Shown in pieces: positions 2,674 through 57,510 of a stretch of DNA of 64,000 nucleotides. Source of the DNA: a virus. Under the pieces are notes generated by a model. The model was not told the origin of the DNA and searched no databases. It was given only the letters and a program-made list of their open reading frames with translations. The stretch spans positions 2,417 through 66,416 of the IMG/VR virus record IMGVR_UViG_3300032315_001390. One strand, 5' to 3'. A program made the translations under genes and the position numbers. Numbering within the stretch: position 1 is the first letter of the stretch; the number at the start of each line of letters is the position of its first letter.

Positions 2674-5600
2674 ATGGCAATTCAAACTAAAGTATTTAAT
2701 AACTGTTTAAATTCATCTGATACTCAGGTATTTCAGTATAACGATTTATTGTTTGTACCTGGAAGTGTGGTATCACAAAATGGTAATTGTTATAAAGATA
2801 CCTTAGTGAATTCTAACTTGGTAGCGACATTTAATATAACTTCCTCAGGGTTTACATCGTGTCAAGAGTGTTTGACAACCACTATGACTGGGCTAGTAAT
2901 TTCTAGTTGTACAAATTCAATTTTATCATATATCACTATACCTAATGATGAGGTTCCTCCGATTGGATACTCTCTTTATTATCTTTCTGAGTGTTGGACA
3001 ATTATATCGGCAACAACTGAGTTTTATAACGTACAAACAAACGTCACTTCGTTTGAAGATTGTGAAACATGTACTTTATTTGGTGGTACTACTGAAAGAA
3101 ACCAAGGCGGCCCTAAAGGTCCTGGAGAACCTACAACACCCAATTGGCGTGTAGAAGAATTTGCAAATTGTTGTAACAGTAGTGATATAAAATGTTTTCA
3201 AATCGATCTTAATAGTTGGGGTAACACCGGGAATCAAATTGCTATTGACTCAACAGTTACTCCAAATGTTCTCTACTATAGGACAGGATCTTTGAATTAT
3301 AACGGAATTGCTCAAGATACTTTTGCTGTTTTTATTTTTACATCTTGTTTAAATGCCGCTAATAATGAGTTAAATTGTCCAACACTTACTCCGACCCCAA
3401 CACCAACACCCACACTTCCAATTTATCAGTACTATGGGAATACTGTACTGATTGATGGTACTCCACCATCATTCAATGAAGCTTGTAATGGTTGGTTGTA
3501 TCAAAAATCATATTATGGATCTAAACCACTAAATTTGTTAGCGGTAAATGATTATTTATACACAAGTCCGAGTCGGGGTCAATCTGATGTTGTTCAAGGA
3601 TCCAATACTGCAGTATTACCACTCGCGTCAAACTCATCAGGTAATGATATAAGATATTTTCAGGTTCGTGGCACTGGTAGAATTGCGGCAATTGTTAATT
3701 GTGTACCTATCACTTGGTATGTATATGTTTCACCTGATCAGTATACATCACCAGGGGTTTGGAGTTTTGCTGATCGTGATGATGCTTGTGATTATCCTTA
3801 TGGTTCATCGTGGGTTTATGTTTATGGTCTAAAACCTATTGATCAACTAACCACTGGCGATATATTGTATAATACACAATCCCTTAATAATCCAAGAGTT
3901 AGGATAGGATCAGGTCCTTTACAATACCAACCTATGTTCACTTGGGATAGTAATACTCAAACAACAACAGGTCTTAAATATTTAGTACAATATGCTGGAG
4001 GAGCTAATGGGGCGATACAAACTATAGACACATGTGATAATCTTTTCCCCCCGACAACTCCCACACCAACGCCAACATCAACTGGATGTCCAGCAATCAA
4101 GGTCGAATGTAATTCGTTTCAACTGAGGGCTGTTGGAAATACATCAGTAACATTCCGTTACAATCGATGTACGACAAGTGGTATTGACTATGATTTTGAG
4201 ATAACTGTTGCTGCATATGGTGTTGAACCTGTTTGTAGTCAAAATACACCAATTTATGTTTCAGGTGGTCCGTATTCCATAAGTCCTCAGGGGTCTATTT
4301 GTTTAATATTATGTATTGACCCAACACCAACTCCAACAAATACTGTGACCCCTTCAATTACTCCAACTAATACTATAACACCTACACAAAGTCGTAGTTT
4401 TGGAGCAACTCCACTACCTACGGAATCACCCACACCTACAAACACTCAAACACCCACAACTACTACTACTCCGACACCAACGACACCATCTATAACACCA
4501 TCTATTACACCATCAATAACCCCCTCTAATAGTCGAGCGGCAACTACAACTACAACTAGACCACCAGCTATTAATGAGTGTGGATTGGTGACAGTACAAC
4601 CTATGGGGGTTACTTGTACTGTTATAAATCCAACGGTTTCGGGTGGTTTAGCCACAGCAATTTTAAATGTTACTGGTGGTACTGGTCCTTACGATTATCT
4701 TTGGGATGATGGATCCACTACTTCTTATCTTACTAATTTGGTAGCAGGTACTTATGAAGTGACCGTATCAGATTATTTCAGTGATTATGTCATCAGAACT
4801 TTTTGTGTAGTGTCATCCGCACCATCGACACCAACTCAGACACCCACACCTACAATAACACCTACAATAGGACTATCACCTACTAACACGCCTACATCTA
4901 CGTTAACACCGACACCATCATCAACTCCACCACTTATATTATGCGCAACTTTCTCACTTAAAGATTCAACAGGTGTTGTTCGGTACGAACAATATCAATT
5001 TAATTTTAATACGATCATTGCAGGATCATATTCTTGGACGGCAAACACTTCACAAAATTATTTGACAAACACAGGATTTCTTTTACTTAGTTTTGGGGGT
5101 GGACCAAGTGGGGTTTGGTCAATAAGTCAGGTTTTAAACACGAACAACATCGAATGGTTTTTTACAGTACAAACATCTGTTGCTTCGAATATTGTACCGA
5201 CAAAAGGTTGGTACATCAATGGGAATACCACTTATATTGATAGTTTTAACAGAACAAATGTCATACAAAGTGTACAAGTAGAATCGGGAACTTGTAAAGT
5301 AATTACTTTGAATGCAACATTGACTAGTGTGAATGCGACTTGTCCTCAATATTCAGACGGCAGTATTACAGTTGTTGCTAATGGTGGAACACTACCATAC
5401 ACTTATTCATTGGATAGTTTTAATTACACTCCGAATAATACCTTTTTAAATCTTTCTAGTGGCTTTTACACTGTTTATGTTAAAGATAGTGATACGACAC
5501 CACAAATATTTTCAGAATCTATAATTGTGGACACGGTATACTCACAACCACAACCAACAAATTTAACCTTCAGAAGAGTTAATTTTGTACCAGGTTCAAA

Positions 5601-6579
5601 TAATAATCAACCTACAATAATCGATGAGTTCTCACAATATGAATTAAATTTAAATGGATTATCAAATGGAGTTAGTTTATCAACATTCGATTTGAATTTA
5701 CAAATTCAAAATATCACCAAACAACCTGGTGTAACAAATGCTAACGGTACCACAGTAAGGGTCTCGGTAAATAATACTCAAATATTCTTTACGAGTATTA
5801 CTCAGTCAACATTATGGACTCAAACCAATTCACAACTCCGTGGTAACACAGCATGTCCAACCGACCTCACAATCACAAAACAAATAATAACAACTATCCC
5901 TGTTGTTCAATTACTCGGTCAAAATTTGAATAGGACGGACAATGTTGTTGTTGAAATTACAAATAAAGCTCAAATAGTAACACCTTCGCCACAACGTACT
6001 TGTCCTACTGAATTGACAAACACAATAATCCTTTCGTCAATATATGCAACCTTCGGTCCAACGCAAATATGTTTTCCTTTGGTTGGTAATCCGAGCATAA
6101 GTGAAAATGCATTTAGGACGGCTGCACAGTCAATAAGTCCAACATACACGGGTAATTGGACAGTACAAGTAGCAGGTATAGCGACATGTGTGGAAATACT
6201 GAGCGTAAAAACTTCTGGAATGGACGATTCAACATCTTTGAGATTTGATTGTAATAACCAAGTGGGTAGTGTACCTAACCCATTCACATCTTCCTCAGTT
6301 TCTACAAATCAAACTTCGATTGTTTCACCTCCTAATGCACCTTCTTGTGGTGATTCTATTATATGGGTTAATCCAGAAACGTTCACGATAAATTATTTTG
6401 TAAATAGTCCATGTACTCAATGTTCAGGTAATTATGAACTTAGCTTATCAGTCAATAATACTGGAGTTCTTGTGAGTTCTACAATCCCTATGGTACCTGG
6501 TAATGGACTTGTGACTTTCGATAACATAGTAATAAACAGCAATAGTATAGTAACAATCAAAATTGATTGTATAATTTAA
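2674..6579 (+). CDS. giant Cys-rich modular protein with PT/TPS linkers (putative structural, host-recognition protein)
   Basis: 1301-aa ORF; linker [24 protein letters not shown] is shared with the 2046-aa minus-strand protein; beta-rich T/S/N-rich segments. Confidence 0.65.
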   Translation: MAIQTKVFNNCLNSSDTQVFQYNDLLFVPGSVVSQNGNCYKDTLVNSNLVATFNITSSGFTSCQECLTTTMTGLVISSCTNSILSYITIPNDEVPPIGYSLYYLSECWTIISATTEFYNVQTNVTSFEDCETCTLFGGTTERNQGGPKGPGEPTTPNWRVEEFANCCNSSDIKCFQIDLNSWGNTGNQIAIDSTVTPNVLYYRTGSLNYNGIAQDTFAVFIFTSCLNAANNELNCPTLTPTPTPTPTLPIYQYYGNTVLIDGTPPSFNEACNGWLYQKSYYGSKPLNLLAVNDYLYTSPSRGQSDVVQGSNTAVLPLASNSSGNDIRYFQVRGTGRIAAIVNCVPITWYVYVSPDQYTSPGVWSFADRDDACDYPYGSSWVYVYGLKPIDQLTTGDILYNTQSLNNPRVRIGSGPLQYQPMFTWDSNTQTTTGLKYLVQYAGGANGAIQTIDTCDNLFPPTTPTPTPTSTGCPAIKVECNSFQLRAVGNTSVTFRYNRCTTSGIDYDFEITVAAYGVEPVCSQNTPIYVSGGPYSISPQGSICLILCIDPTPTPTNTVTPSITPTNTITPTQSRSFGATPLPTESPTPTNTQTPTTTTTPTPTTPSITPSITPSITPSNSRAATTTTTRPPAINECGLVTVQPMGVTCTVINPTVSGGLATAILNVTGGTGPYDYLWDDGSTTSYLTNLVAGTYEVTVSDYFSDYVIRTFCVVSSAPSTPTQTPTPTITPTIGLSPTNTPTSTLTPTPSSTPPLILCATFSLKDSTGVVRYEQYQFNFNTIIAGSYSWTANTSQNYLTNTGFLLLSFGGGPSGVWSISQVLNTNNIEWFFTVQTSVASNIVPTKGWYINGNTTYIDSFNRTNVIQSVQVESGTCKVITLNATLTSVNATCPQYSDGSITVVANGGTLPYTYSLDSFNYTPNNTFLNLSSGFYTVYVKDSDTTPQIFSESIIVDTVYSQPQPTNLTFRRVNFVPGSNNNQPTIIDEFSQYELNLNGLSNGVSLSTFDLNLQIQNITKQPGVTNANGTTVRVSVNNTQIFFTSITQSTLWTQTNSQLRGNTACPTDLTITKQIITTIPVVQLLGQNLNRTDNVVVEITNKAQIVTPSPQRTCPTELTNTIILSSIYATFGPTQICFPLVGNPSISENAFRTAAQSISPTYTGNWTVQVAGIATCVEILSVKTSGMDDSTSLRFDCNNQVGSVPNPFTSSSVSTNQTSIVSPPNAPSCGDSIIWVNPETFTINYFVNSPCTQCSGNYELSLSVNNTGVLVSSTIPMVPGNGLVTFDNIVINSNSIVTIKIDCII

Positions 6580-13447: not shown

Positions 13448-13642
13448 ATGCCAAAATCAAGAAACCGTGGAGGTGCTAAGGAGCATCGAGCAAGAGTTAA
13501 AAAAAGAAACGCTAGATTATTATCAGAAAAAAATGCGTTCCGTAAAGAATACACAAGAATGATGGAACAAAAAATTGAGGAAATGAAGGCCAAAGGACAA
13601 GTTGAACAAAGTTCAAGTGAAAATAATTCTCAACCCGAATAA
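13448..13642 (+). CDS. small basic protein
   Basis: 64-aa K/R-rich ORF with a tight ATG after the previous stop. Confidence 0.3.
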   Translation: MPKSRNRGGAKEHRARVKKRNARLLSEKNAFRKEYTRMMEQKIEEMKAKGQVEQSSSENNSQPE

Positions 13643-16010
13643 TTACGATCTATTCAATCCGATCATTACAAAAGAAATATCTATGACACACAAATTAGGT
13701 GAGTTGGAAAATCCTTACATACAGGTAGTATGGGAAGATGATTCTTCAAACTTCTCCCAGGAAAGGATTAAAAGTATCAAGGAATACTTCCAAAAGAAAT
13801 ATTCTTCTCAGAATGTCAATATTATCACTAAGTTGAAAACTCAAAACCAAGAGGATCAACAAGTGACTGAAGTTGCTTTGAATATCTTGGATAAAGACCA
13901 ACAGAAAAATATGATTCGATCATATTTGGAAAGTAAAAGTCAACAAAATTATTTAGACCAAATTTTGGAAATAGATAAAAATGTTGAAAGTAGGATTTTA
14001 CTCAACTCTGAAGATAATTTTGCGTTCCGTAAATGGTATATCAAAAAAATTGAATTTAGTAATTTTTTATCTTATGGTGAAAATCAAGTAGTTGATTTTA
14101 CATGTTTGGATGGTATAACTACCGTAGAATCCAATCCACCAAATTTTGGTGGTAAAACTGTACTTTCAGTCGACTTACTTCTTTTTCTTTTCTTCAATAC
14201 CACAACAAAGACAAGTAAAGCTGAGGAAATATTCAACAGGTTTACTGATAAAAATAAAGTAAGTGTTTCAGGTGAAATTTCTATCGATGGTGAAGATTAT
14301 TTGATTGTACGTAATTTGGAAAGAAAACTTTCTAAATCAGGAGAATGGAATGTAAAAACTGAACTAGATTTCTTCAAAAAACTACCTAATGGTGAACTTC
14401 AGAATTTTACTGGAGAACAACGTAGAGAAACTGAAAAATTCATAAAAACGTCTATTGGTGAACAAGAAGATTTTTTGATGACCATCTTAACTACCGCATC
14501 CAATTTGGAAGATTTACTCGAAGCTAAACCTACCGCTAGAGGACAAGTCTTGAGTAAGTTTTTGGGTCTTGATTTCCTAAAGAGAAAAGAAGAAACCGCC
14601 AAAGAAATATTTTCAGAGTTTTCAAAACAAATGGTATCTAATGTGTACTCCCACACAACCCTGACTCAAGAAAATGAGAATATGGAAAATAGGATTAGTA
14701 CCATCAAGTCGGATAATCAGAATATACAAACAGAGATAGAATTAGTCTCAGATAGTATTTCTAAGGGTGAGGCATACAAAGTAACTCTTCTAACTCGTAA
14801 GCATACGGACATTGATCATAAACTATCGATACTTAACCCTACAACAATTTCTGATAACATCAGAAATTTAGAAACAGAGTATCAAGAACAAAAACGTCAA
14901 TTTGAGACAATAGTTGTAAAAGAACCTTCAGAATTTTATGATGAAGAAACTCATGATCAGGTGAAAAAACAAATCAAAATTGAGTATGGAAATTCTGTTC
15001 AACTTCAAACTGAAATCAAAGAGATAGAAAAATTGAGGTCTAGTGTAAGCGGTGGAATCAAGTGCGAACATTGTGGAATAGATCTTCTCACCGCATCTTT
15101 AACCGCTAATAAATTAGGTCTTCTTGACGGACTTATCTTACGAAAACAAGCGATAGATACTTTACTGAATGATTTATCATTCAAGGATCAAACATTTGTG
15201 AGCTTAAAAAAAGAGTTTGATGAATATGAAAAAAACAAACTGATTCGAGAAAAGTTTGAGGCGAAGATGGAGTCGATTCAAATGAAAATTTCAAATGAAC
15301 AAGAAACTCATCGAAGATATTTGGAACAACAAACTAAAATTGAAGAGAACAGAAAAACAGACCAATTGATTATGAAATCAGATACTCGTCTGAATGAATT
15401 GAATAGGGAAAAATCTCAATATGAACGAACGTTAGGGTCTAACCAACAAGCCGTTATTGATTTAGAGTCAAGACTCAAAAAAAATATGGACTTAATTATT
15501 AAAATTGGTCAAGAGTTTGAAAGAGAAAAAGTATACAAAATGTACCTTGAAATTTTCGGTAAAAATGGTATATCTAAAATTATCATGAAAACCATGATGC
15601 CAATTATTAATTCAGAATTGACACGACTTCTCCAAGATAGTGCATACTTCAAATTGGAAATACGAATTAGTGACAAAAATGAAGTAGAATTTGTCATGAC
15701 TGACAATTCGACTGGTGTAGAAAAACTTATGATCTCAGGGTCTGGGTATGAAAAAACAATAGCTTCGTTAGCTTTACGAGCAGTCCTTTCTAAAGTGTGT
15801 TCATTACCAAAACCAAATATAATTGTGTTTGATGAGGTATTTGGTAAAATTTCTAATGAGAATTTAGAAATGGTGGGTGAATTTTTTACTAAAATTAAAG
15901 AATATTTCGAAAAGATATTTGTGATTACTCACAACCCGTTAGTTACTAATTGGGCTGATAATATTTTGAAAATTGAAAAACAGGGGAATGTTTCTAGGGT
16001 CTGTAACTAA
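13602..16010 (+). CDS. sbcC: SbcC/Rad50-family ATPase (T4 gp46-like); true start uncertain
   Basis: FSNFLSYGENQVVDFT...NFGGKT (Rad50 N-terminal P-loop), long coiled coil, C-terminal SGSGYEKT signature and IIVFDEVFG Walker B. About 130 aa lie upstream of the Rad50 motif, so the start may be an internal Met or there may be a separate small ORF. Confidence 0.7.
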   Translation: MNKVQVKIILNPNNYDLFNPIITKEISMTHKLGELENPYIQVVWEDDSSNFSQERIKSIKEYFQKKYSSQNVNIITKLKTQNQEDQQVTEVALNILDKDQQKNMIRSYLESKSQQNYLDQILEIDKNVESRILLNSEDNFAFRKWYIKKIEFSNFLSYGENQVVDFTCLDGITTVESNPPNFGGKTVLSVDLLLFLFFNTTTKTSKAEEIFNRFTDKNKVSVSGEISIDGEDYLIVRNLERKLSKSGEWNVKTELDFFKKLPNGELQNFTGEQRRETEKFIKTSIGEQEDFLMTILTTASNLEDLLEAKPTARGQVLSKFLGLDFLKRKEETAKEIFSEFSKQMVSNVYSHTTLTQENENMENRISTIKSDNQNIQTEIELVSDSISKGEAYKVTLLTRKHTDIDHKLSILNPTTISDNIRNLETEYQEQKRQFETIVVKEPSEFYDEETHDQVKKQIKIEYGNSVQLQTEIKEIEKLRSSVSGGIKCEHCGIDLLTASLTANKLGLLDGLILRKQAIDTLLNDLSFKDQTFVSLKKEFDEYEKNKLIREKFEAKMESIQMKISNEQETHRRYLEQQTKIEENRKTDQLIMKSDTRLNELNREKSQYERTLGSNQQAVIDLESRLKKNMDLIIKIGQEFEREKVYKMYLEIFGKNGISKIIMKTMMPIINSELTRLLQDSAYFKLEIRISDKNEVEFVMTDNSTGVEKLMISGSGYEKTIASLALRAVLSKVCSLPKPNIIVFDEVFGKISNENLEMVGEFFTKIKEYFEKIFVITHNPLVTNWADNILKIEKQGNVSRVCN

Positions 16011-29398: not shown

Positions 29399-29697
29399 AA
29401 AACAAGATAGATTATTGTATTGAGGATATTGAAAAAAAAACCAATAAATATTTTTCAACATACAAATACGACTCATGTAGTAAAGACTTTATAGATACTC
29501 TGAAAAAAAACTGTCATGTCCTTTTTTCAATCAATGATAGTTCAGGGTTTTCGGAAATTTTTATGAAAACTAAACATCCTTTTTATTTTCACTTCAAAAA
29601 AGACATGTATGAGTTATTCAATACCAATATTTATTTCTATGAAGAATCAAACTCTGAATTAAATTTGTACTTAAAACTTTTAAAAAATATAAAATGA
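29395..29697 (+). CDS. hypothetical protein
   Basis: 100-aa ORF; overlaps the thioredoxin start by 4 nt. Confidence 0.4.
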   Translation: MKNKIDYCIEDIEKKTNKYFSTYKYDSCSKDFIDTLKKNCHVLFSINDSSGFSEIFMKTKHPFYFHFKKDMYELFNTNIYFYEESNSELNLYLKLLKNIK

Positions 29698-29993
29698 AAG
29701 AGATTACACCACAAGAATTAGAAAATAAAATAAACTCTGGTGAAAAATTTGTAGTAGATTTTTTTGCCACTTGGTGCGGACCTTGTAAAATGTTATCTAA
29801 AATATTAGAAGAACATCATACTAAATTCGGAGTTCCAGTTTACAAATTCGACATAGATCAAGACCATCAAATTTGTATTGACCATGGTATTCGAAGTGTT
29901 CCAACTATTTTGTTATTTAGTGATTCTTCAGTAAAAAATAGACATGTTGGGATATTACAAGATAATCAATTTAGTTCTTTTGTTAATCAATGA
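29694..29993 (+). CDS. trxA: thioredoxin
   Basis: WCGPCK active site in a 99-aa thioredoxin-sized protein. Confidence 0.75.
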   Translation: MKEITPQELENKINSGEKFVVDFFATWCGPCKMLSKILEEHHTKFGVPVYKFDIDQDHQICIDHGIRSVPTILLFSDSSVKNRHVGILQDNQFSSFVNQ

Positions 29994-30274
29994 CCATGAA
30001 GAAAATTATAGTCCTATCGATGGAAGGTTGTCCTTACTGTCAAGAATTCAAAGACTTATTGAATGATGGGAATATTGAACACACTGTAGTTGACATAGAA
30101 AATTTTTCAACAGAGTATGATATGTTCAAAAAAATAACATCATCTGATTACCTTCCTGGTTTTATGATATTAGACGAAGAAAATCACACATTGGAGTGTT
30201 ATGCCGCTGATCAAGATTTTTTCACAATTGATCAAGCGTTTCAACTATGTAAAACTACCCAAGAAGAAGAGTAA
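29990..30274 (+). CDS. glutaredoxin-like protein (CPYC)
   Basis: N-terminal EGCPYC motif in a 94-aa protein; 4-nt overlap with trx. Confidence 0.6.
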   Translation: MTMKKIIVLSMEGCPYCQEFKDLLNDGNIEHTVVDIENFSTEYDMFKKITSSDYLPGFMILDEENHTLECYAADQDFFTIDQAFQLCKTTQEEE

Positions 30275-30480: not shown

Positions 30481-31230
30481 ATGGATGGTTACAAAGATCT
30501 TGAAACCGATTGGTTTTTGAAAAAACCTATTGATTTGGAACACAAACAATATGTTCTGAATTATTTCTTGAAAAGAGTTGAAGAAAGTTTATCACTTGGT
30601 GAGGTATATCCATTTTTCTCATTAGTTTCGTTACATTTATGTTCTTTAGGTCATTTTTCTAAAACAGGTAAAATTTTAAAAATCAAAAATAAAATATTGG
30701 AGTTTGACACCGAGATTTCAATTCACGATCTCAAAGAATATAAACCAAGAAGAAAAATGAGTGAAAGTGAATTGATTGAATTACAAAAAATAGTAAAATA
30801 TTCTCAAGAAAAATTGACCCAATATTTCACGATTTGTAAGACAATATGGCAATTTTCTTTTGAGTCAACTAGTGTAAAATTACGGAAAATCGGAAAAGAA
30901 TTTGACGATAAATTTTTATTTCTTTACAAAGACATTTATTCGAAAGAGTACACACTTTGGGAATTTGAATATCAAAAAAATAAAAAAGGAAAAAATTTGG
31001 TTATCAATAAATTATTGACCGAAAAATTAAATCACTTTGATTTGATGGATACTTTATCAGAAAGTGACCCATACAAAAATTTGTCAATAATAGAAGGTTT
31101 CTGTACTCAAAATTTACCAATTGAAAACACTCTGTTACCTTTGTTTAAAAGAAAAATTCAGATAATTTTTCAAAAAAGTTTACTTGAAAAATATGAAGAA
31201 CTAAAAAAAAATTTTGACAAATCAATCTAA
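30481..31230 (+). CDS. hypothetical protein
   Basis: 249-aa ORF. Confidence 0.45.
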   Translation: MDGYKDLETDWFLKKPIDLEHKQYVLNYFLKRVEESLSLGEVYPFFSLVSLHLCSLGHFSKTGKILKIKNKILEFDTEISIHDLKEYKPRRKMSESELIELQKIVKYSQEKLTQYFTICKTIWQFSFESTSVKLRKIGKEFDDKFLFLYKDIYSKEYTLWEFEYQKNKKGKNLVINKLLTEKLNHFDLMDTLSESDPYKNLSIIEGFCTQNLPIENTLLPLFKRKIQIIFQKSLLEKYEELKKNFDKSI

Positions 31231-31256
31231 ATTGTTTATATTTTTAAAAAAAAATA

Positions 31257-31472
31257 ATGAAAACAATTCACAACACCCTAACGGATGAAATTAAAAGATT
31301 GGATGACTCAAAGGCTGAGAACTTAGTCGGTGTATCTAATTCTAATTGGAGGTATGTACCGAAAAAAGAATGGAAAGAAAAGGTACGTGATGTAAAAAAA
31401 ACTGAACCTAAAAACCAAAAAAATGATACAGATAAAAATAACGGAAGAAGAAATAGTAAAAAATCCAAATGA
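31257..31472 (+). CDS. small basic hypothetical protein
   Basis: 71-aa K-rich ORF. Confidence 0.3.
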   Translation: MKTIHNTLTDEIKRLDDSKAENLVGVSNSNWRYVPKKEWKEKVRDVKKTEPKNQKNDTDKNNGRRNSKKSK

Positions 31473-31737
31473 TAGTGATTTGGGAGCTTTGGTGAGAGAA
31501 AGATTTTATAAAGAAAAATACAGAATGACTGAATTAAATCAGGAACTTATCAATGACAAAACCATAAAAAAAGTTTTGAATAAATTAAGACAACCTTGTC
31601 ATATAGATTTTATTTCAAACTTACTAAAAATCAACACCCTTCAAACTCGACTTTTTGTGGACTATCTTATTGACCACGATATGATTGTGGAAACACCATT
31701 AGCGTCGGGGTACTACACAACCAACAAAAAAATCTAG
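31423..31737 (+). CDS. hypothetical protein (start uncertain)
   Basis: 104-aa ORF whose 5' end overlaps the previous ORF. Confidence 0.35.
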   Translation: MIQIKITEEEIVKNPNDSDLGALVRERFYKEKYRMTELNQELINDKTIKKVLNKLRQPCHIDFISNLLKINTLQTRLFVDYLIDHDMIVETPLASGYYTTNKKI

Positions 31738-31741
31738 AAAA

Positions 31742-33019
31742 ATGAATGTAATTGGAACAGAAATTACCGCAGAATATATTTGGTTAGATGGTTACAAACC
31801 AGAACCAAACCTTAGAAGTAAGGTTAAAATATTAAAAGAATGGAAAGGTCACAGATTTACAGCTGATTTTTACCCTGAATGGTCTTTTGATGGATCATCA
31901 ACTCGACAAGCAGAAGGGCATTACTCAGACAGAGTTCTGAAACCTGTTAAGGTTTATAAAAATCCATTCCAACATGGAGACTATCATTTTTTTGTGTTGT
32001 GTGAAGTTTGGAATCCTGACGGTACACCACATGAAAGTAATGTTAGACACTTGTTACGAGACCATGATCAAATTTGGTATGGTTTCGAACAAGAATATAC
32101 CATACTCCAAGATGGTAGACCGTTAGGTTTTCCCGTCAATGGTTATCCCAAACCACAAGGTACATACTACTGTGGGGTAGGGAGTAATCAAGTTCATGGT
32201 CGTCAGTTTGTTGAAGAACACTTGAATTTGTGTTTGAAAGCAGGATTAAATATCACTGGTATTAATGCAGAAGTATTATTGGGTCAGTGGGAGTTCCAAA
32301 TTTTGGGTGAATCTTCTTTAGAAGCGGCCGATGACTTGTGGATGGCAAGGTACATACTTCAGAGACTATCCGAAAAATATCGATATAACATAGAATTTCA
32401 TCCAAAACCTGTAGAAGGAGATTGGAATGGTAGTGGATTACATTGTAATTTCTCAAACCAAAAAATGAGAACGAGTGGTGGTGAACAATATTTTAAATCA
32501 ATACTTAAGGCTTTTGAAATAAGACACGATCTACATATCGAAAATTATGGTTCTTCTAATGAACTTAGATTGACTGGTAAACATGAAACTCAGTCTATTG
32601 ATAAGTTTAGTTGGGGAGTGTCAGACAGAGGGGCATCAATAAGAGTTCCGCTCAAAACCGCATCGGAATGGAAAGGTTATTTGGAAGACAGAAGACCCGC
32701 ATCAAATGCAGATCCATATAAAATTGTAAAAGTCATTTCAGAAACATTGAGTGCGTCTGAAACAATGATTGCAACTCATAAACTAATGTATGACGATGTA
32801 AATATAAATAATTTAAAGAATAAGTATTCAACACTATCAAATGATGATCTATTGTCTGAATATAAAAAGGATAATGAAACCGAAAGTCTTGAATATGATA
32901 CCTGTGGGATTTGTGGTATCAAAACTAGACAACTTAAATCGGCACACATTGATACTCGTATAGGTTATGTTGAGGGAGCAGGACAAGGTTGTGATGGATC
33001 ATGTGGGACTTTTAAATAA
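31742..33019 (+). CDS. glnA: glutamine synthetase type II (eukaryote-like GSII) with an unusual Cys-rich C-terminal extension
   Basis: AEYIWLDG N-terminus; TYYCGVGSNQVHGRQFVEEH...GINAEVLLGQWEFQILG (GSII catalytic signatures); an extra about 80-aa tail carries CGICG...GQGCDGSCG. Confidence 0.85.
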   Translation: MNVIGTEITAEYIWLDGYKPEPNLRSKVKILKEWKGHRFTADFYPEWSFDGSSTRQAEGHYSDRVLKPVKVYKNPFQHGDYHFFVLCEVWNPDGTPHESNVRHLLRDHDQIWYGFEQEYTILQDGRPLGFPVNGYPKPQGTYYCGVGSNQVHGRQFVEEHLNLCLKAGLNITGINAEVLLGQWEFQILGESSLEAADDLWMARYILQRLSEKYRYNIEFHPKPVEGDWNGSGLHCNFSNQKMRTSGGEQYFKSILKAFEIRHDLHIENYGSSNELRLTGKHETQSIDKFSWGVSDRGASIRVPLKTASEWKGYLEDRRPASNADPYKIVKVISETLSASETMIATHKLMYDDVNINNLKNKYSTLSNDDLLSEYKKDNETESLEYDTCGICGIKTRQLKSAHIDTRIGYVEGAGQGCDGSCGTFK

Positions 33020-33026
33020 AATCACT

Positions 33027-33260
33027 ATGGAAAAAAATGAAATGGTAAACCATCCCTCTCACTACGGAGGGATTGACAATCCTTATGAGGCAATTAAAGT
33101 AATCGAAGCTTGGGATTTGGACTTCCATCTTGGAAATACGGTCAAGTATATCTCAAGAGCTGGAAAGAAAAATGTAGACAAAGAACTTGAGGATCTCTTG
33201 AAAGCTAAATGGTATTTGGATAGGAAAATAGAAAAAATTAGAAATCAATTTGATAATTAA
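33027..33260 (+). CDS. DUF3310-like phage protein (HPSHY motif)
   Basis: NHPSHYGG...IEAWDL..GNTVKYISRAG.K; ATG at 33027 just after the GS stop. Confidence 0.45.
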   Translation: MEKNEMVNHPSHYGGIDNPYEAIKVIEAWDLDFHLGNTVKYISRAGKKNVDKELEDLLKAKWYLDRKIEKIRNQFDN

Positions 33261-34398: not shown

Positions 34399-37300
34399 CT
34401 ATCTTTTAAAAAATTTAACGTTGTAAGTGTTTCCAACAACTAAGTCGAAATTGTTCGAAGTGAGACAATTAGAATTTGTTGGGGTTATTTGTAAAATATA
34501 ACTCCCCGATATTCCATTTACTGTAACGGCAATAATTGAAAATTCTCTCATTTTAGATGTTGATGGATCAGAAACACTGAGTAAATCTCCGTTCGACAAA
34601 GAACTTAGAAGTGTTACTGGCCCTGTAATTGAATTTGGGTTAAGTATTAACCTTGCAATTGAACACGAGGAATAAATTGTAACGTTACTTGAATTTCTAG
34701 CATTAAATTCCCCGTTGGTTAAAAATGCAGCGGATTTTGTTGTAAAACTCCAAGAATAAATTGGGAAAGGTGTTGGTGTTGGTGTGGGAGTTGTTGTTGG
34801 TGAAGGTGTTGGATTTAAACAAACATTACATCCTGTGGTTGTGTATCCGGTTATGAAACCATTGTTGTCGGGATATGTGTAATTCTTCAAAATTTGACTT
34901 GTGTCAATTCCTTGAATTATAGTGGGAGGTATAAATACATCTAAATACAAACAACAATCTGTCAGACCTAAATTATCAACGGTGTAATTGTTTTCTACCC
35001 AACTATAGTTGTCATTCATTATTGTGCCTGTGTATACGATGTTTCCAGTACAACAATCTCTTAATACTACACAACTCTCACTAGCGAACCCGATATTGCT
35101 ACAACCACAAGATTGACCTATATCAATTGGAATATTCAAGTAATTTGATACTAGTCCGAATATTGGGTCATTAGGATTATTGACAGTTCCCCACTCATTT
35201 ACTAGAAAACCTATTGGATCTGTTCCTAATGAATATGGTATATTGAGAGGATAAGTAGTTGTAAAATTTGCACAATTGTTAAATGTAAATTGTTCTGTAT
35301 AAAAGGCCCACCATTCAAAAGGGTTTACGGTACAAGCTGTATATGCTGGTAAAAAGTTTATAGTAGTATTTGCGGAGTTTTGTGTAATAGAAATTGTAGT
35401 AAGTGTCGGGAAATTATTACCACCACATGTTGGAATTTCCCATAACTCTGTTAGACCTTGTTGTATTAAATCTGTTGATGTGGCAATGGTAACACACTCA
35501 AAGCCAGAAGCACATCCATAATAACACCCACAATTGTTATTGTTGTTCAAAATTAATAATCTCTGATAGACGTTATTATTTGGTGAACCTGAAATAAACA
35601 ACGGACCTCGATAACTACAAATTGAAAAAGAACTTGGATCCCAACTTGAATCTACATTCATTACAAAATTATTTCTATCACAATCAGTGTAAGTAAATGT
35701 GACCGATTCTCCTAGGTTCAAATTATTAGTAAATTCCCAAGTCGAACAAATCCCGACAGTCATTGGAATTTGTGGAATTGGGTTTGTACAAATTGTTTTT
35801 AATGTTGGTTCTGTTTCGACATAAGGACCACCAGAAGAATCAATGATTAGAGGAATTGTTAAACTACAAATAAAATAAGTATCTGAATATAATGGAAGTA
35901 TAGGATAATTTGTTACACCACTTTGGTCACAAGGATTGTAGACCATATTTTCAATAATTGCTAAATTTGGAACCACAACTTCCCAAGTGAAACATAAACG
36001 TTCAATACAATTATTTGATATTAAAACTGCACATGCAATGTCTTCACAATTAGAATCGAATGGGAAAATAGGTGGAGTACATGAACAAACAGTGAATTTA
36101 GTTTTTGGAAAATAGTGTGTTGTATACCCAAAATCTGTTGGAGATTTCCGTCTTTCAATATCATAGCAATCAGTATATTCTATCCAATCGATACAACCTT
36201 GAATTGTAGAACTTGAACTATTTGGTTGTACTGTGACTAAATATTCGGAACAGGGACAGAGAGGACAAGAACCTGTATTGACAATCGGAACGCAACTTTG
36301 AGAACATATCGGGTTTGATTGACATGCATCACAATATGCAACAGGTTGAGTTTTAGAACAAATAACAATAATTTGATCTGTTGTAAAATACTTATTCTCT
36401 ACAAATGTTGCTACTCCGTTAAAACCAGGCAATGGTCCAGAATTGTTTATATCTATATTTTGATAATTTCCATCACAATCAACATATTGAATCTGATATA
36501 CTGAATTATTAACAATATTTAATGTATATTGAATACAAGGGGCTTCCGTTGTACTTGGACTAGGAGTAAGAGTTGTGGTTGGTGTTTGTGTTACAGTTTG
36601 GGTTGGAGTTATAGTAGGTGTGGTTGTTTGTGTAGGGGTTATTGTAGAAGTTGGGGTTGAAGTTAGTGTTGGTGACGCAGTATTTGTTGGTGTATTGGTC
36701 GGTGTTTTAGTTAAGGTACTTGTTGGTGTTTGAGTGTTTGTTGGTGTTTGAGTGTTTGTAGGAGTATTGGTTGGGGTTTGGCTGGTTGTAGGAGTATTGG
36801 TTGGGGTCGGAGACACCGTAGGAGGTGGAGTTGAACCTGGACTACGGGTTGGTGTTGGTGTTACAGTATTTGTTGGAGTGTTTGTTGGTGTTCGAGAAGT
36901 TGTTGGAGTGTTTGTTGGTGTTCGAGAAGTTGTTGACGTAGGAGTTTGAGTTGGGGTGGAAGTTCGTGTTGGAGTATTTGTTGGTGTAGTTGTTGGAGTA
37001 GATGTAGTTGTCGATGTAGGTGTTGTTGTTTGTGTCGGTGTTGGCGTCTTTGTGGGAGTAGAAGTTACTAGGGGTGTTGGATTACAAAGATTACCACATT
37101 GTAGTTGTTCAGCAATAGTTGCGGCAACACCTGATGAAGTAGAAACAGTTCCTTGTCGAGCACAAATGTATTTCGTTTCACCTACGACCATACTGAAGAC
37201 AGTTACCAATCCAGCACATTGATTATATTGAATTTCACAACCTCCATTTGCGACAACACTATATTGGAAACAAGGAGGACAAGTTGGTGTAACTGTGGTG

Positions 37301-40300
37301 GTCGGTGTTATAGTATTTGTCGGGGTTGTTGTAGGTGTTTGAGTATTTGTTGGTGTTTGACTATTAGTAGGAGTCTGTGTGCGTGTTGGGGTCTGAGTAT
37401 TTGTAGGAGTTTGTGTAGTTGTCGGAGTATTTGTAGGTGTTTGTGTATTTGTTGGAGTGTTTGTTGGAGTTGGTGACTCGGTTGGAGGTGGTGTTGCACC
37501 TGGACTACGAGTTGGTGTAGGTGTTACAGTATTTGACGGAGTGGTTGTTGGTGTTACAGTATTGGTTGGAGTAGTTGTTGGGGTCTGAGAAGTTGTTGGA
37601 GTAGTTGTTGATGTTGATGTTACAGTATTTGTTGGTGTATTGGTCGGAGTTAGAGTTGAGGTACTTGTTGGTGTTTGAGAAGTTGTTGACGTGGGACTTT
37701 GAGTTGGTGTAGATGTTGGTGTGGAAGTAGTAGTCTTAGTTGGTGTTTGGGTTGCCGTAGGTGTTGGATTTGGTACACAATTTTCATAATCCAATCTTAT
37801 ACCTTTACAATTGCTACTAACACCAACAAAATTGAAAATTGAAGAACATGCACAAACACTAATACTGTATCCTAAAGGAAAATACTGAAAACCAGGTGGT
37901 GGTAAAATTTGATTTAAAACATTATTACAATCAGTATATTGAATTTCAGTACACCAATTACAACCAGTACGATCTAATATTTCCACATTCCATGTTTTAC
38001 ATGCACATCTTGTAACAGATGGTGTTGGAGTAAATGTTGGAGTACAAGTCGGAGTTTTGGTATTTGATGAGGTGTTAGTTGGTGTGATGGTATTAGTTGG
38101 TGTTTGACTCTGAGTTGCGGTTCTCGTTGGTGTAATTGTTGAGGTACTTGTCGGTGTGACACTAGGAGTTTGAGTTGGAGTTACTGTTGGGGTTGAGGTG
38201 TTTGTTGGTGTTTGGGTGTTTGTTGGAGTCGTTGTTGGAGTTTGAGTTAAACTACTCGTTGGTGTTTGGGTACTAGTTGGGGTTATGGTGCTTGTTGGAG
38301 TTGTAGTTGGTGTTTGAGTATTTGTAGGTGTTTGAGTATTTGTAGGTGTTTGTGTGTTTGTAGGGGTTTGAGTATTTGTAGGTGTTTGAGTGTTTGTTGG
38401 AGTGTTTGTTGGAGTTGGTGACTCGGTTGGAGGGGGTGTTGCTCCCAAACTACGACTTTGTGTAGGAGTTACAGTATTTGTTGGAGTAACCGAAGGAGTT
38501 ACAGTATTAGTAGGGGTATTAGTTGAAGTTACAGTATTTGTTGGAGTAATTGTTGGTGTTGGTGAACTAGTATTTGTAGGTGTATTGGTGGGTGTTTGTG
38601 TTGAGGTAGGAGTTATTGTATTTGTTGGTGAAAATGAAGGTGTTGGGGTATTAGTAACAGATTGTGTTGGTGTTACAGTTTGAGTGTTTGTTGGGGTTAT
38701 GGATGGTGTAACCGTTTGAGATGGAGTTACAGTAGATGTAACTGTAGGTGTTGGAGTATTAGTTGGGGTTTTAGTCGGTGTTGCCGAGGGACAAGGATCA
38801 CAAGAATCACATATGTTTGGGGTCACACTAGAAATCTGAGTATTGAAATCTAAATCAATAACTCTGTCTCCAATTACATAACATTGAGAATTATACTCCA
38901 AACCGTCTCCAAAAACTATATTAATACTAGATGGAATAGAAACTATGATAGAATCTCCATAAATTTCACAACAATTTTGAGCGACATACAAATTATAAAC
39001 AGTCGTTGGAGTTACCGTTGGTGTAGGTGTCAGAGTTGGAGTAGGTGTTTGAGTTTGAGTCGGTGTTAGAGACGGAAAAGGAACACAACCAGAAGAATAA
39101 AGTGTAACATTACCAGCAGGAGCGGAACAACTTTGTCTAACAAATGCTGGAACGTTACATGAACACACATAGTATACCCAACCTAGTGGGAAAAATTGTG
39201 TAAAACCAAAATCAGATGGTAAATAATCTGAAGTTATACCATTACAATTCCTATATCGTACAGATACAACACAATTTGCTTTGGTTACTTCTAAATAATA
39301 CGTGTTACAAGTACATGGTGATGTTGTCGGTGTTTGTGAAGGAGTTAATGTTGGTGATACAGTATTTGTCGGTGTTTCAGTAGAAGTTGGTGTATTTGTA
39401 GGTGTTTGTGTATTTGTAGGTGTTGGTGTTTCAGTAGAAGTTGGTGTAATTGTGGGTGTTTGTGTATTTGTAGGTGTTGGTGTTTCAGTTGGTGTAGGTG
39501 TTTGGGTAGTTGTAGGTGTTTGAGTGTTTGTTGGAGTGTTGGTTGGGGTTGGTGAATTTGTTTCTGGTGGTGTTGATCCTGGACTACGAGTTGGCGAAGG
39601 AGTTACAGTATTAGTTGGGGTAATCGAAGGAGTTACACTATTCGTTGGAGTAACTGTAGAAGTTACAGTGTTTGTTGGAGTTTTTGTTGTTGTTGATGAT
39701 ACAGTATTTGTTGGTGTATTGGTTGGTGTTTGGGTTAAGGTCGGAGTTACTGTATTTGTTGGTGAAAGTGAAGGTGTTTGGGAATTAGTTAAAGATTGTG
39801 TGGGAGTTACAGTTTTAGTGTTTGTTGGTGTTTGGGTTGGTGTTGGTGTTTGAGTTGGTGTATTGGTTGGAGTTTGAGTTTGTGTTTTAGTTTGTGTTGG
39901 TGTTCTTGTTGGAGTTCTAGTTGCTGATGGTGTCGGGTCTGGACATGGTGAACCAATACTCAACGAACATATATTAGAGATTACTGAATTAACCTGAAAA
40001 TTTACTGTTGTAAGGTCAGTAGGTTCAATAATGTAATATCTTTGACTTGAAAATAAAACACCATCAGTACCAAACTGAATTGTAATTGAACTAGGAACAC
40101 TCAAAACAATTGTACTTGTTACATTAGAACAACAATTTTCAGCTAAGTAATTAGTATATTGGATACTTGGTGTTTGCGTTGGAGTTTGAGTATTTGTTGG
40201 AGTAATGGTTGGAGTTATAGTCGGTGTGGCAGTATTTGTTTGAGTAACCGATGCGGTTAAACTAACAGTTGGTGTTACACTTGGTGTTGGTGGTGGTAGT

Positions 40301-40539
40301 TCATTAGTAAAACAATTTGTTTCTAAAAAAGTTATATTTTCAAACGGTGTATTAAAATATCCGTTTTCGTACCAAATAGTTAAAACTTCACCAGGACTTA
40401 TTTGATTTCCTGTAGATATGAAATCCTCATTACAGTATCTGTAATTAAAAGTGGCAATTACTGGACCATCATTCCGAATAATAGATTTTAAACAACTACA
40501 ACTCACACTTTTTTTATTATAATTATCTGTCAAGTTCAA
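34399..40539 (-). CDS. giant (2046 aa) Cys-rich modular protein with multiple long P/T/S/N/Q linkers (putative virion fibre, adhesin or host-recognition protein)
   Basis: Single uninterrupted ORF; at least 5 Cys-rich modules ([10 protein letters not shown]...[14 protein letters not shown]...CACS, CFQYSVV...[19 protein letters not shown]...CSCT) separated by linkers such as [27 protein letters not shown] repeated four times; no ATG at the 5' end (TTG start at 40539). Confidence 0.7.
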
Positions 40540-48741: not shown

Positions 48742-49012
48742 ATACAAACCCATAGGGATTACACCCAAAGAAAAAGCAGACCAGTTGTTAGAATCTGTTA
48801 TGTTTAGTCTAAATAAACAATTTGACCCAAACACAGGTAAAGACCAACCAATTCCGCGCAATCCATACTATAAAGAATGTGCATTAGCAATTGTAAACGA
48901 AATCTTTGAGTTTATGAAAAAAGATGATTTAGACTCCGAAACGGCTTATTGGGCTAATCATCCTATTTCTAATTTTTGGGTTGATGTTGAACGTGAAATT
49001 AAATTGAGATGA
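48734..49012 (+). CDS. hypothetical protein
   Basis: 92-aa ORF. Confidence 0.4.
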   Translation: MSKYKPIGITPKEKADQLLESVMFSLNKQFDPNTGKDQPIPRNPYYKECALAIVNEIFEFMKKDDLDSETAYWANHPISNFWVDVEREIKLR

Positions 49013-50031
49013 ACTTACTTATAACTTTAGAAAAATATTTTCAAGAAGGTTGGTTGATTAAACAAACTCATCCAACTTTACCTCTGACAATTTGGAATTA
49101 TTCCCAATCAACCCAATACGAGGGTAAGTGGGATGAGATAACCCTTATGTGTAGAGGTTTGGTAACAGATGACAATGGAAATATCGTTGCTAGACCTTTC
49201 AAGAAGTTTTTCAATTTAGAAGAGAATAAACACACACCAACCTCAGAATTCGAAGTTTATGAAAAGATGGATGGTTCTTTGGGTAATATGTTCAAATACA
49301 ATGGAGAGCTTGTTTGTGCTACCCGTGGTTCATTTACCTCAGAGCAATCTGAATGGATGTCAAATTTTGCCAAAAAATACAACTATAAAGACATCTTAGT
49401 TGATGGATTAACCTACTTGTTTGAAATAATTTATCCCGAAAATAGAATTGTAGTGGATTATGGTAACCAAGAAAGATTAGTATTGTTAGTTATTATAAAA
49501 ACCCAAACTGGTGAAGAAGTATCCTACGATGAAATTTCTCAATTTGATGGTTGGGATATTGTCAAAAAATACGATGGAATTAGGGACTACACCCAACTGA
49601 AGAGTATAATTTCTAACAACCAAGAAGGTTTCGTTGTAAGGTTTTCAAACGGAAATAGGGTAAAAATCAAAGGAGAAGAATACTTGCGTCTTCATAAGAT
49701 TATGACTGAAGTTTCAACTAAATCTGTTTGGGAGATTTTATCCAATGGAGGTAATATGGAAGAGATACTCAGAGATGTTCCTGATGAGTTTTTTGATAAA
49801 ATAAAGGAATATGAAATGGAACTTGTTTCTAAATTTGATGATATAAAAGATGAATATAATTGGATTTATAAAATCTTAGAAAGAAATGAGGAAATTTCAG
49901 AAAATAGAGCTATCTTTGCCCAATACGCTAAAAGATACAAACACCCCTCCATTTTATTTGGTCTATTGGATGGTAAAAATATAGACCCTATGATTTGGAA
50001 AATTATACAACCCGAATACAAAAAACTATGA
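49009..50031 (+). CDS. ATP-dependent RNA ligase, T4 Rnl1 (RnlA)-like
   Basis: CRGLVTDDNGNIVARPFKKFFNLEENKHT matches T4 Rnl1 [33 protein letters not shown]; nucleotidyltransferase motif I EKMDGSL (KxDGSL, as in T4 KEDGSL); later FVVRFSNGNRVKIKGEEY (motif IV/V-like). Confidence 0.7.
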   Translation: MNLLITLEKYFQEGWLIKQTHPTLPLTIWNYSQSTQYEGKWDEITLMCRGLVTDDNGNIVARPFKKFFNLEENKHTPTSEFEVYEKMDGSLGNMFKYNGELVCATRGSFTSEQSEWMSNFAKKYNYKDILVDGLTYLFEIIYPENRIVVDYGNQERLVLLVIIKTQTGEEVSYDEISQFDGWDIVKKYDGIRDYTQLKSIISNNQEGFVVRFSNGNRVKIKGEEYLRLHKIMTEVSTKSVWEILSNGGNMEEILRDVPDEFFDKIKEYEMELVSKFDDIKDEYNWIYKILERNEEISENRAIFAQYAKRYKHPSILFGLLDGKNIDPMIWKIIQPEYKKL

Positions 50032-56478: not shown

Positions 56479-57510
56479 ATGGAAAGAAAACTTGCAACAG
56501 TCAGAAGAATAAAAGAAATTTTACCCATCGAAGGAGCTGATAGGATTGAACTTGCGGTGGTTGATGGTTGGAAAGTTGTGGTGGCAAAAGATGTCCAACA
56601 CAAGGTTGGTGATTTGGTAATCTATTGTGAGATTGATTCTTTTCTTCCCATCAGAGAAGAATTTGAGTTCTTGCGTAAGTCATCCTATAAAAAGATGGGA
56701 GACCAGGAAGGGTTTCGTTTGAGAACCGCTAAAATGAAAGGACAAATTTCACAGGGATTGATTTTGCCAATTTTCGTTTTGAACCCACCCGATACAAATA
56801 TTTATGTCCAACCATTTGAGGGCTTGGATGTAACAGAGATGTTAGATATTGTGAAATACGAACCCCCCATTCCAGCAAATTTAGCTGGTAAGGTTAAGGG
56901 GTTGTTTCCTTCGTTTCTCGTCAAAACTGACGAAGAAAGGGTGCAAAACATTGCGGTCGAATATTCCGCCTTATGTTTCCAAAGTAAACATCAATTTTAT
57001 GTAACCGAAAAGTTGGATGGTTCATCGGCCACTTTTTATATTAACAATGGAGAATTCGGAGTTTGTTCACGAAATTTAGAACTATTAGAAACCGAAGATA
57101 ATAGTTTTTGGAAAGTAGCACGTGAATTAAAACTAGAGGAAAATCTAAGAGCACTCGGAAAGAATATTTGTCTACAAGGTGAGTTGATTGGTGAAGGTAT
57201 TCAAGGCAATCCCTATGGTATAAAAGGACAAACTGTTAGATTTTTTAGTGTTTATCAAATTGATAGTAGAACCAGGTTGGGAATCAAAGATTTAGAGGAT
57301 ATTTGTTTCATGATTGGTCTTCAAACTGTACCTATTCTGGAATCTAATTTTATTCTTCCAAACACAATTGAAGAGATGTTACAGTATGCGGAAGGAAAGT
57401 CCGCTCTTAACCCAAAAACAGAAAGAGAAGGTGTTGTTGTTAGGTCATTAGACGGGACAATTTCTTTTAAGGCAATCAGTAATAAATTTTTACTTAAAAA
57501 CGAACAATGA
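56479..57510 (+). CDS. ATP-dependent RNA ligase, DraRnl/Rnl5-like (N-terminal OB-like domain + nucleotidyltransferase)
   Basis: N-terminal KLATVRRIKEILPIEGADRIELAVVDGWKVVVAKD...GDLVIYCEIDSFLP is typical of the DRB0094-type ligase family; motif I EKLDGSS (KxDGxx), EGVVVR (motif IV). Confidence 0.6.
   Translation: MERKLATVRRIKEILPIEGADRIELAVVDGWKVVVAKDVQHKVGDLVIYCEIDSFLPIREEFEFLRKSSYKKMGDQEGFRLRTAKMKGQISQGLILPIFVLNPPDTNIYVQPFEGLDVTEMLDIVKYEPPIPANLAGKVKGLFPSFLVKTDEERVQNIAVEYSALCFQSKHQFYVTEKLDGSSATFYINNGEFGVCSRNLELLETEDNSFWKVARELKLEENLRALGKNICLQGELIGEGIQGNPYGIKGQTVRFFSVYQIDSRTRLGIKDLEDICFMIGLQTVPILESNFILPNTIEEMLQYAEGKSALNPKTEREGVVVRSLDGTISFKAISNKFLLKNEQ

Follow-up and report, generated by a model that had tools for sequence, protein, structure and literature searches.

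Phage glutamine synthetases and the systems that control the enzyme by contact

Glutamine synthetase (GS) genes are carried by a number of large phages. The parts of a 2025 preprint that deal with them report 248 GS genes, carried by 247 huge phages for which freshwater and marine environments were the main sources (bioRxiv 10.1101/2025.02.27.640493), while glnA appears among the auxiliary genes in the corresponding part of a jumbo-phage survey (Anim Microbiome 2026, PMC13037316). The gene described here is likewise a phage-encoded GS of a large phage genome. It lies in a 64,000 nucleotide (nt) stretch of viral DNA (IMG/VR record IMGVR_UViG_3300032315_001390, positions 2,417 to 66,416), which was analysed as a whole and is named hereafter the window. 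A reading of the sequence alone (the original prediction) had pointed to this open reading frame (ORF) as a GS with a Cys-rich end and had considered GS uncommon in phages. The latter view does not agree with the published count nor with the 111 IMG/VR stretches, on contigs of up to 246 kb, found to encode relatives of the window GS. Phage GS being already known, the novelty resides in the fusion of the enzyme to a 42 amino acid (aa) Cys module (C-module), in a conserved neighbour with a predicted winged helix, in the split arrangement of this module and its usual companion (N-module) on two adjacent proteins, and in the unannotated family of small proteins (N/M/C family) to which the modules belong. 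The passages on glutamine synthetase in the two surveys make no mention of a C-terminal Cys module, a winged-helix partner or a split N/C arrangement. Phage GS were so far listed only as auxiliary metabolic genes, and this locus offers a testable handle on their control.

The GlnR regulator has a winged-helix fold and its gene precedes the one coding GS. In the glnRA system of Gram-positive bacteria, GS and the GlnR repressor are encoded in one operon, and the feedback-inhibited enzyme binds the carboxyl terminal tail of GlnR, which activates DNA binding (Travis et al. 2022, PMC9249791). GlnR and TnrA are MerR-family proteins whose own carboxyl terminal tail binds inside the active-site cavity of the GSI dodecamer. 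The window locus differs in that it codes for a GSII, that its predicted minimal winged helix (~60 aa) has no detectable sequence family, and that the proposed contact would be made through add-on modules. The Foldseek matches listed for this winged helix are of the MarR, IclR, IdeR and ArsR types, not MerR. The glnRA and GlnR/TnrA systems are best taken as a functional analogy for docking, not as a group to which the locus would belong; a GS-GlnR/TnrA-like switch in a phage would be built from unrelated parts. Cyanobacterial IF7/IF17 and archaeal sP26 act on GSI enzymes; to our knowledge they have no N- or C-like module and none is described as a winged helix. These very small proteins control GS by direct binding (PMC6316151 and PMC6212724 for IF7/IF17; bioRxiv 10.1101/2020.05.06.080432 for sP26) and can be seen as a looser analogy than glnRA.

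A type II glutamine synthetase with an added Cys module

The gene and its segments are organized as follows:

31742..33019, + strand: GS ORF, ATG start, 425 aa
31742..32764, + strand: GSII catalytic core, residues 1-341 (beta-grasp and catalytic domain), defined by PDB, Pfam and NCBIfam matches and by conserved active-site positions
32765..32890, + strand: linker, residues 342-383, MIATHKLMYDDVNINNLKNKYSTLSNDDLLSEYKKDNETESL, common to many metagenomic phage GSII of 372-433 aa
32891..33016, + strand: C-module, residues 384-425, putative four-Cys zinc ribbon with motif HIDTRIGYVEGAGQGC, defined by the search with the tail and by the module hidden Markov model (HMM)

The limits of the ORF are those of the original prediction, and the two motifs on which the prediction relied are found at residues 10 (AEYIWLDG) and 173 (GINAEVLLGQWEFQ). 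Its assignment to the eukaryote-type GSII is sustained by all comparisons. Both Pfam domains are matched above their gathering scores (Gln-synt_N, PF03951, E=1.5e-9; Gln-synt_C, PF00120, E=6e-18). The PDB chains of GSII from yeast, plant and human cover residues 5-341 with E=8e-105 to 3e-88, the best match being yeast GS (3fky, E=8e-105 over residues 8-337), whereas GSI chains reach about 1e-9, all being at 5e-9 or weaker. The NCBIfam GlnII model is matched with E=4e-122 over positions 3-330 of its 333, as compared to 7e-15 for GlnA and 4e-7 for GSIII. The score of 407.6 bits is below the GlnII equivalog cut-off of 500 and leaves the protein outside the strict bacterial GlnII equivalog, indicating a divergent GSII from a divergent phage lineage. 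On the basis of these alignments the window gene is a type II glutamine synthetase.

The active site was checked in an alignment of the window GS and 119 database relatives with a human GLUL reference, verified to be identical to PDB 8dnu. The 20 positions compared, whose roles we take to be those of mammalian (human) GS structures, are identical in the window GS (20/20) and in 119/119 relatives. In human numbering they comprise the metal ligands E134, E136, E196, E203, H253 and E338 together with D63, S66, W130, Y162, G249, N255, S257, R262, R299, E305, R319, R324, Y336 and R340. Solved GSII structures (yeast Gln1, 3fky; maize GS1a, 2d3a; human GLUL, 2qc8/8dnu) thus have both domains and the checked metal, substrate and ATP residues in common with the window GS, and are devoid of its 84-aa C-terminal extension. 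The original prediction had left room for a pseudoenzyme, in case that active-site residues such as the Glu/His metal ligands were substituted. This candidate is not supported because all 20 positions, substrate residues included, are identical in the window GS and its relatives. The phage GSII is therefore probably active, as judged from its residues, and presumably it would make glutamine from glutamate, ammonium and ATP during infection of the host by the large phage.

The 84-aa tail that remains beyond the core (residues 342-425) is composed of two parts. An extension as such is not foreign to this type of GSII, contrary to what had been first proposed: the 119 closest relatives generally continue past the core for 38-94 aa, many of them with the linker pattern ...H.MY..V.......KY.TLSN[DE][DE]LL.EY..D, and such extensions are typical of the phage GSII clade with proteins of 372-433 aa. 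Within that set the Cys module terminates just three proteins (the window GS, P0002 and P0003). The tail had been described as Cys-rich over about 80 aa with two CxxC-like pairs; its length is correct, the Cys module occupies only the last 42 aa, and the two pairs do exist with the spacing CxxC and CxxxC (C388-x2-C391 ... C417-x3-C421) rather than as two CxxC. The module features the motif HIDxRxGYVEGxGQxC.

When used alone as query, the tail retrieves stand-alone proteins of 74-141 aa that have no Pfam domain, with E values down to 3.5e-10 (P0121, in a database of 5.8 billion sequences). The window C-module is nearest to the P0121- and P0130-type proteins, which have an N-(M)-C organization (53-65% identity), and it matches the profile of the stand-alone proteins with an HMM E=1e-15. 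The family consensus is CxxCG-x(11-12)-HIDxR[IV]GY[VI]EGxGQxC-x(2-5)-C, where all four Cys and RxGYxEGxGQxC are invariant, and GS residues 388-421 hold every invariant position of the pattern CxxCG ... [HN]I[DN]xRxGY[VI]EGxGQxC-x(2-5)-C. Homologues of the last 42 aa being found as stand-alone proteins, the fusion of an unrelated domain, one of the two options initially raised for the Cys-rich end, is the one that holds. The linker pattern is widespread, the Cys module is confined to few GS and homologous to independent proteins, and the tail is thus read, from sequence comparison, as a clade-typical linker followed by an acquired 42-aa C-module. Generic zinc ribbon or rubredoxin-like CxxC...CxxC knuckles resemble the module in having four invariant Cys, arranged as two pairs that flank short beta strands. 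The RxGYxEGxGQxC loop is specific to the N/M/C family. The C-module probably binds zinc, given its CxxC and CxxxC pairs and the beta-rich model of the module.

The fusion of GS to the C-module is present in 11 independent metagenomic or viral contigs with 73-99% identity. Besides the window, L001 and L002, they comprise L016-L022 and L028, eight IMG/VR contigs that each come from a different metagenome. Divergence of the three GS segments was compared between the window and L001, L002, L019 or L021, and between L001 and L002, as amino acid identity and as proportions of nonsynonymous (pN) and synonymous (pS) differences or the ratio of the respective rates (dN/dS):

C-module: identity 0.86-0.95, pN 0.02-0.07, pS 0.45-0.81
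GS core: identity 0.77-0.82, pN 0.11-0.16
Linker: identity 0.33-0.43, dN/dS 0.57-0.96

Synonymous sites of the C-module are near saturation among the fused homologues. These substitution patterns show that purifying selection acts more strongly on the C-module than on the GS core; the linker is fast-evolving and behaves as a flexible spacer.

These data bear directly on the possibility that the tail is artefactual or a passenger devoid of function, originated by loss of a stop codon, by frameshifting into the following gene or by an assembly error, or that the GS is a pseudoenzyme. The neighbour concerned is:

33027..33260, + strand: DUF3310 gene (Pfam PF11753, E=2e-15), with probable true start at ATG 33027, 8 nt past the GS stop

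The observation in favour of an artefact is that the mechanical ORF call of the DUF3310 gene overlaps the end of GS by 53 nt in the window. Homologues of DUF3310 start after the GS stop, 8 nt past it in L001 and 23 nt past it in L002, matching the ATG at 33027, so that the overlap is an effect of ORF calling. The frameshifted DUF3310 product that the original prediction had considered is also at variance with the homology of the tail to independent proteins and with the low pN relative to pS. Adding the recurrence of the fusion in the eleven contigs and the conserved active site, an explanation by artefact or pseudoenzyme is hardly credible.

The N/M/C family of small proteins

A profile search of 1.84 billion representative proteins yielded 790 clusters at E<=1e-3, of which 88 at E<=1e-10. 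Proteins among the 150 matches listed are 42-227 aa long, save for one zinc-finger repeat protein of 1645 aa. HMM dissection of 166 family members defined three modules that shuffle in order across the family. The N-module has two helices and the motif ..I.[IV][ST]E.EI...PND.ELG..VR.KYW, the M-module is a zinc finger with the motif CxxC...DYLxGxDHLxC, and the C-module is the one fused to GS. Their combinations are distributed as follows:

C only: 59/166
C-N: 40/166
N-C: 27/166
N-M-C: 19/166
M-C: 6/166
M-C-N: 3/166
M-C-N-M: 3/166
Other architectures: a few of 166

Of the 166 members, 94 have N and C in the same chain, and both orders occur. An N-module without C is nearly absent, with three apparent cases among the 166 and at least one of these being a truncated gene call: P0211, which looks like an N-M protein, is a C-N-M protein cut short. 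Natural split forms coding N and C on adjacent genes were looked for elsewhere and none was found. The C-module is also fused to other proteins, namely P0174, P0195, P0268 and a 174-aa protein of L013. The possibility that the GS linker is a cryptic N-module, suggested by one MAFFT alignment, was rejected (hhalign probability 0.6%).

No significant match to the modules was detected in Pfam, PHROG or NCBIfam, and their sequence profile retrieved from PDB only CxxCGK noise. The stand-alone module proteins have no tblastn match in deposited phage genomes (50,697 phage records). An AlphaFold2 (AF2) model of the N-M-C protein P0134 (predicted local distance difference test, pLDDT, 83; predicted template modelling score, pTM, 0.39) has N folded as a helical hairpin and C with short beta strands, and Foldseek searches against PDB and BFVD found only generic RING or zinc-ribbon matches (best E=0.07). 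Genes neighbouring the family members code for dCMP deaminase, DUF5856, NUDIX, PD-(D/E)XK, glycosyltransferase, TonB-receptor and CHU_C proteins, and by this gene content the contexts look like those of large phages. The GS fusion provides a first functional foothold for these tiny modular proteins rich in Cys, which make up a sizeable family of large phages that has escaped annotation.

Note that the 1645-aa protein (P0197, which is not encoded in the window) has 11 tandem M-module HMM matches, and 20 matched stretches in the original search. It was probably retrieved on account of generic C2H2-like repeats and is unlikely to be a true member of the family.

An N-module and a predicted winged helix upstream of GS

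The companion of the C-module is encoded by the ORF that precedes the GS gene:

31423-31737, + strand: 104-aa ORF that begins MIQIKITEEEIVKNPNDSDLGALVRERFY and ends 4 nt before the GS start
31423..31521, + strand: N-module, residues 1-33 of the 104-aa ORF, MIQIKITEEEIVKNPNDSDLGALVRERFYKEKY, identified by BLASTP and the N-module HMM
31555..31722, + strand: predicted minimal winged-helix domain, residues 45-100 of the 104-aa ORF, from AF2 model and Foldseek

The N-module has BLASTP similarity to P0134 (E=2e-11) and P0142 (E=1e-9) and matches the N-module HMM with E=5e-15. Residues 2-28 match the pattern I.[IV][ST]E.EI...PND.[ED]LG..[VI]R..[YF]. A six-frame scan of the 64-kb window identified exactly one N-module and one C-module, and an ORF with the N-module is found immediately 5' of GS in nine out of the nine fused loci that have upstream sequence. 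The unfused loci L011, L012, L014 and L015 have neither module next to GS. The original prediction, whose observation of a Cys-rich extension was confirmed and whose interpretation was supported in part, had missed this partner module.

The carboxyl terminal part of the 104-aa protein (residues 45-100) is modelled by AF2 with the topology H-b-H-H-b-b (pLDDT 86-91, from 4 sequences). Foldseek matches of the model are MarR, IclR, IdeR, ArsR and Z-alpha structures with a probability of 0.97-1.0 yet weak E values (0.02-0.08), consistent with a minimal winged helix. The protein has no match in Pfam or NCBIfam. Its reading as an N-module followed by a degenerate M-module was discarded: hhalign of residues 33-104 with M gives a probability of 19% and the region folds as a winged helix in the model.

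The winged-helix domain has a broader occurrence beside GS than the modules. An iterative search over the loci examined identified it as a 61-84 aa ORF with no N-module signature next to GS in at least 25 contigs. It is directly upstream of GS in 22 contigs, whose GS identity to the window enzyme goes down to 52%, and it is found downstream of GS in L090 and as a second copy in L037. The contigs that have it directly upstream are:

L011-L013, L026, L027, L037-L045, L048, L056, L070, L073, L079 and L080

Since the winged helix is found alone beside GS in these contigs, its pairing with GS is, by distribution, older and wider than the N- and C-modules, which were gained just in the lineage of the window.

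The gap between the 104-aa ORF and GS is 4 nt in the window and a stop/start overlap (ATGA) in L001, which is suggestive of co-translation; the two ORFs are probably translated together. Synthesis of a single polypeptide with the organization N-winged helix-GS-C by frameshift or read-through was considered and rejected, the ORFs being in different frames and no conserved shift site being found. Going back from the ATG, the GS frame closes after 3 nt in L001 and stays open over 54 nt in L002.

Proposed origin of the split modules

The order of events was approached with a neighbour-joining tree of the GS core. Fused GS form one clade that keeps the linker, and the sister clade has short tails (proteins of 334-349 aa). 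L026 (a 228-kb contig) and L027 (110 kb) fall in the sister clade with a 348-aa GS that has no C-module. Their upstream ORF of 101 aa (L026 5684-5989, also in L027) is collinear with the 104-aa ORF of the window (E=5e-19), and its N-module signature PND.DLG..VR is decayed from PNDSDLGALVR to SSE-DINLLVN. This single lineage is suggestive, at the sequence level, of N and C having been gained together and later lost or decayed together. The history that would most likely account for the present organization is that an N-C gene had its two parts separated by a cassette of winged helix-turn-helix (wHTH), stop codon, GS and linker ([wHTH-stop-GS-linker]). Its outcome would be the two proteins N-wHTH and GS-C.

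Proposed docking of the winged-helix protein on GS

Two halves that are normally in one chain are thus found on two neighbouring proteins, a Rosetta-stone type hint of physical association. The N- and C-module halves would still associate in trans, as suggested by their co-occurrence in one chain in both orders, by their strict co-presence at the GS locus and by the decay of N where C is absent. In associating they would anchor the winged-helix protein on the GS oligomer, coupling enzyme and regulator. Taken as a whole, the explanation that combines a GSII carrying a C-module, the split origin of N and C from one gene, and docking is evenly balanced between being right and being wrong. The docking step itself is a tentative proposition, somewhat more probably incorrect than correct. 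One step further, the split docking device would be the phage's own enzyme-coupled transcription switch for nitrogen status and the N/M/C family a set of modular adaptors for protein-protein contacts in large phages, an extension that is speculative and has a small chance of being true. If docking fails, the locus would code for an ordinary active phage GSII with an unexplained yet clearly selected zinc-ribbon-like tail.

The alternative that stands closest is that the C-module works alone, either as a zinc-dependent tether to a protein or nucleic acid or as a cap for oligomerisation or stability, the N-module being a historical leftover with no N-C contact. C-only proteins indicate that the module can act by itself: they account for 59/166 members, and L096, L098 and L099 have no N-module in neighbouring ORFs. 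The fusions of C to other proteins, listed above, point in the same direction, and the residues other than Cys that are invariant (R, G, Y, E, G, G and Q) suggest that the C-module has a binding surface of its own. A leftover N-module is not what is expected from its integrity in 9/9 fused loci and its decay in L026/L027, where GS has no C-module, nor from the near absence in the family of N without C. Autonomous action of C appears unlikely, although it keeps a substantial weight.

Several other observations weigh, like the C-only proteins, against docking and the history proposed for it. The relative placement of N and C in the AF2 model of P0134 is not confident, as reported by its pTM. The tree used to order the events has no support values. 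That the tail binds zinc, that the GS is active and that the winged helix binds DNA enter the explanation as predictions. Furthermore, modules of the family are found beside GS that are not fused. In L013, which carries the closest unfused GS (P0004), the 174-aa protein is encoded directly downstream of the enzyme gene (5524-6048, + strand) and its last ~40 aa are a C-module of another subtype (GQLC..C). N-only mini-ORFs of 49-61 aa adjoin an unfused GS in three contigs of other GS lineages:

L069, 7205-7390: N-only mini-ORF beside unfused GS
L072, 2871-3053: N-only mini-ORF beside unfused GS
L075, 4078-4227: N-only mini-ORF beside unfused GS

It may be that the GS locus simply collects such modules.

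Other genes of the block

The genes upstream of the 104-aa ORF are, in their order in the window:

29694-29993, + strand: thioredoxin (PF00085, E=6e-21)
29990-30274, + strand: glutaredoxin (PF00462, E=3e-6)
30481..31230, + strand: conserved 249-aa protein that heads the block, of unknown function, with a PIDLEHKQYVL motif and homologues of 239-249 aa
31257..31472, + strand: 71-aa ORF that overlaps the 104-aa ORF in another frame, the overlap falling at the A-run CCAAAAAAATG (junction near 31413-31425)

Phage thioredoxin and glutaredoxin usually serve ribonucleotide reduction. The two genes are located 1.5 kb upstream of the GS pair and follow the same order in L001, glutaredoxin being at the contig edge in L002. 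They may bear on the Cys-rich tail or may simply be the usual phage genes for nucleotide reduction. In the first case, the four Cys of the tail would form a disulfide-based redox switch that makes GS activity or assembly follow the state of thiols in the infected cell, with the phage thioredoxin and glutaredoxin as possible mediators. The presence of redox genes in the same gene block of the window, L001 and L002 is in line with this explanation. The spacing CxxC and Cx3-5C combined with a beta-rich model is nevertheless the usual zinc-ribbon pattern, and most stand-alone family members are not encoded beside redox genes, making a redox switch quite improbable.

Gene order in the block, [249-aa protein]-[small ORFs]-[GS]-[DUF3310], is conserved, with turnover of what occupies the small-ORF slots. 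Homologues of the 249-aa protein are encoded upstream of GS in each GS lineage inspected (L001, L002, L013, L069 and L075). The protein, for which there is no match in Pfam or PHROG, is possibly another functional partner of GS. The 71-aa ORF is conserved in L001 and L002, and in another contig the 71-aa and 104-aa ORFs are one in-frame protein of 161 aa (P0141). Their overlap in the window could result from homopolymer slippage, an indel or a sequencing error. The best promoter-like site of the region (31214-31242, 11/12 positions) is found just upstream of the 71-aa ORF; the total of such sites in the region is no higher than in shuffled sequence. Downstream of the GS gene in L075 (5499-5780, + strand), the DUF3310 protein has a Cys-rich amino terminal extension, MDNECVCGGTGLCQCPPP, a further case in this block of a small addition rich in Cys.

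Genome setting

DNA nearly identical to the 5-kb stretch around the GS gene was not found among the 50,697 GenBank phage records. Only four of these records code for a similar GSII. They belong to uncultured huge phages (LR756501, LR756502, LR756503 and LR745206; 634-735 kb), whose enzymes are 47-58% identical to the window GS in alignments that never pass its residue 343. No tRNA genes were found in the 64-kb window and most of its large ORFs have no PHROG match. Among those with a match are two different T4-type RNA ligases (49009-50031 and 56479-57510, both + strand; phrog_562, E=1e-72, and phrog_968, E=4e-87, respectively) and an SbcC-like nuclease subunit (13602-16010, + strand; phrog_77, E=6e-41). 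A 2046-aa ORF on the opposite strand (34399-40539, - strand) alternates long Thr/Pro-rich repeat tracts (PTxT-type) with Cys-rich modules and coincides with a strong GC-skew spike at 36-40 kb. It could code for a giant fibre- or mucin-like surface protein.

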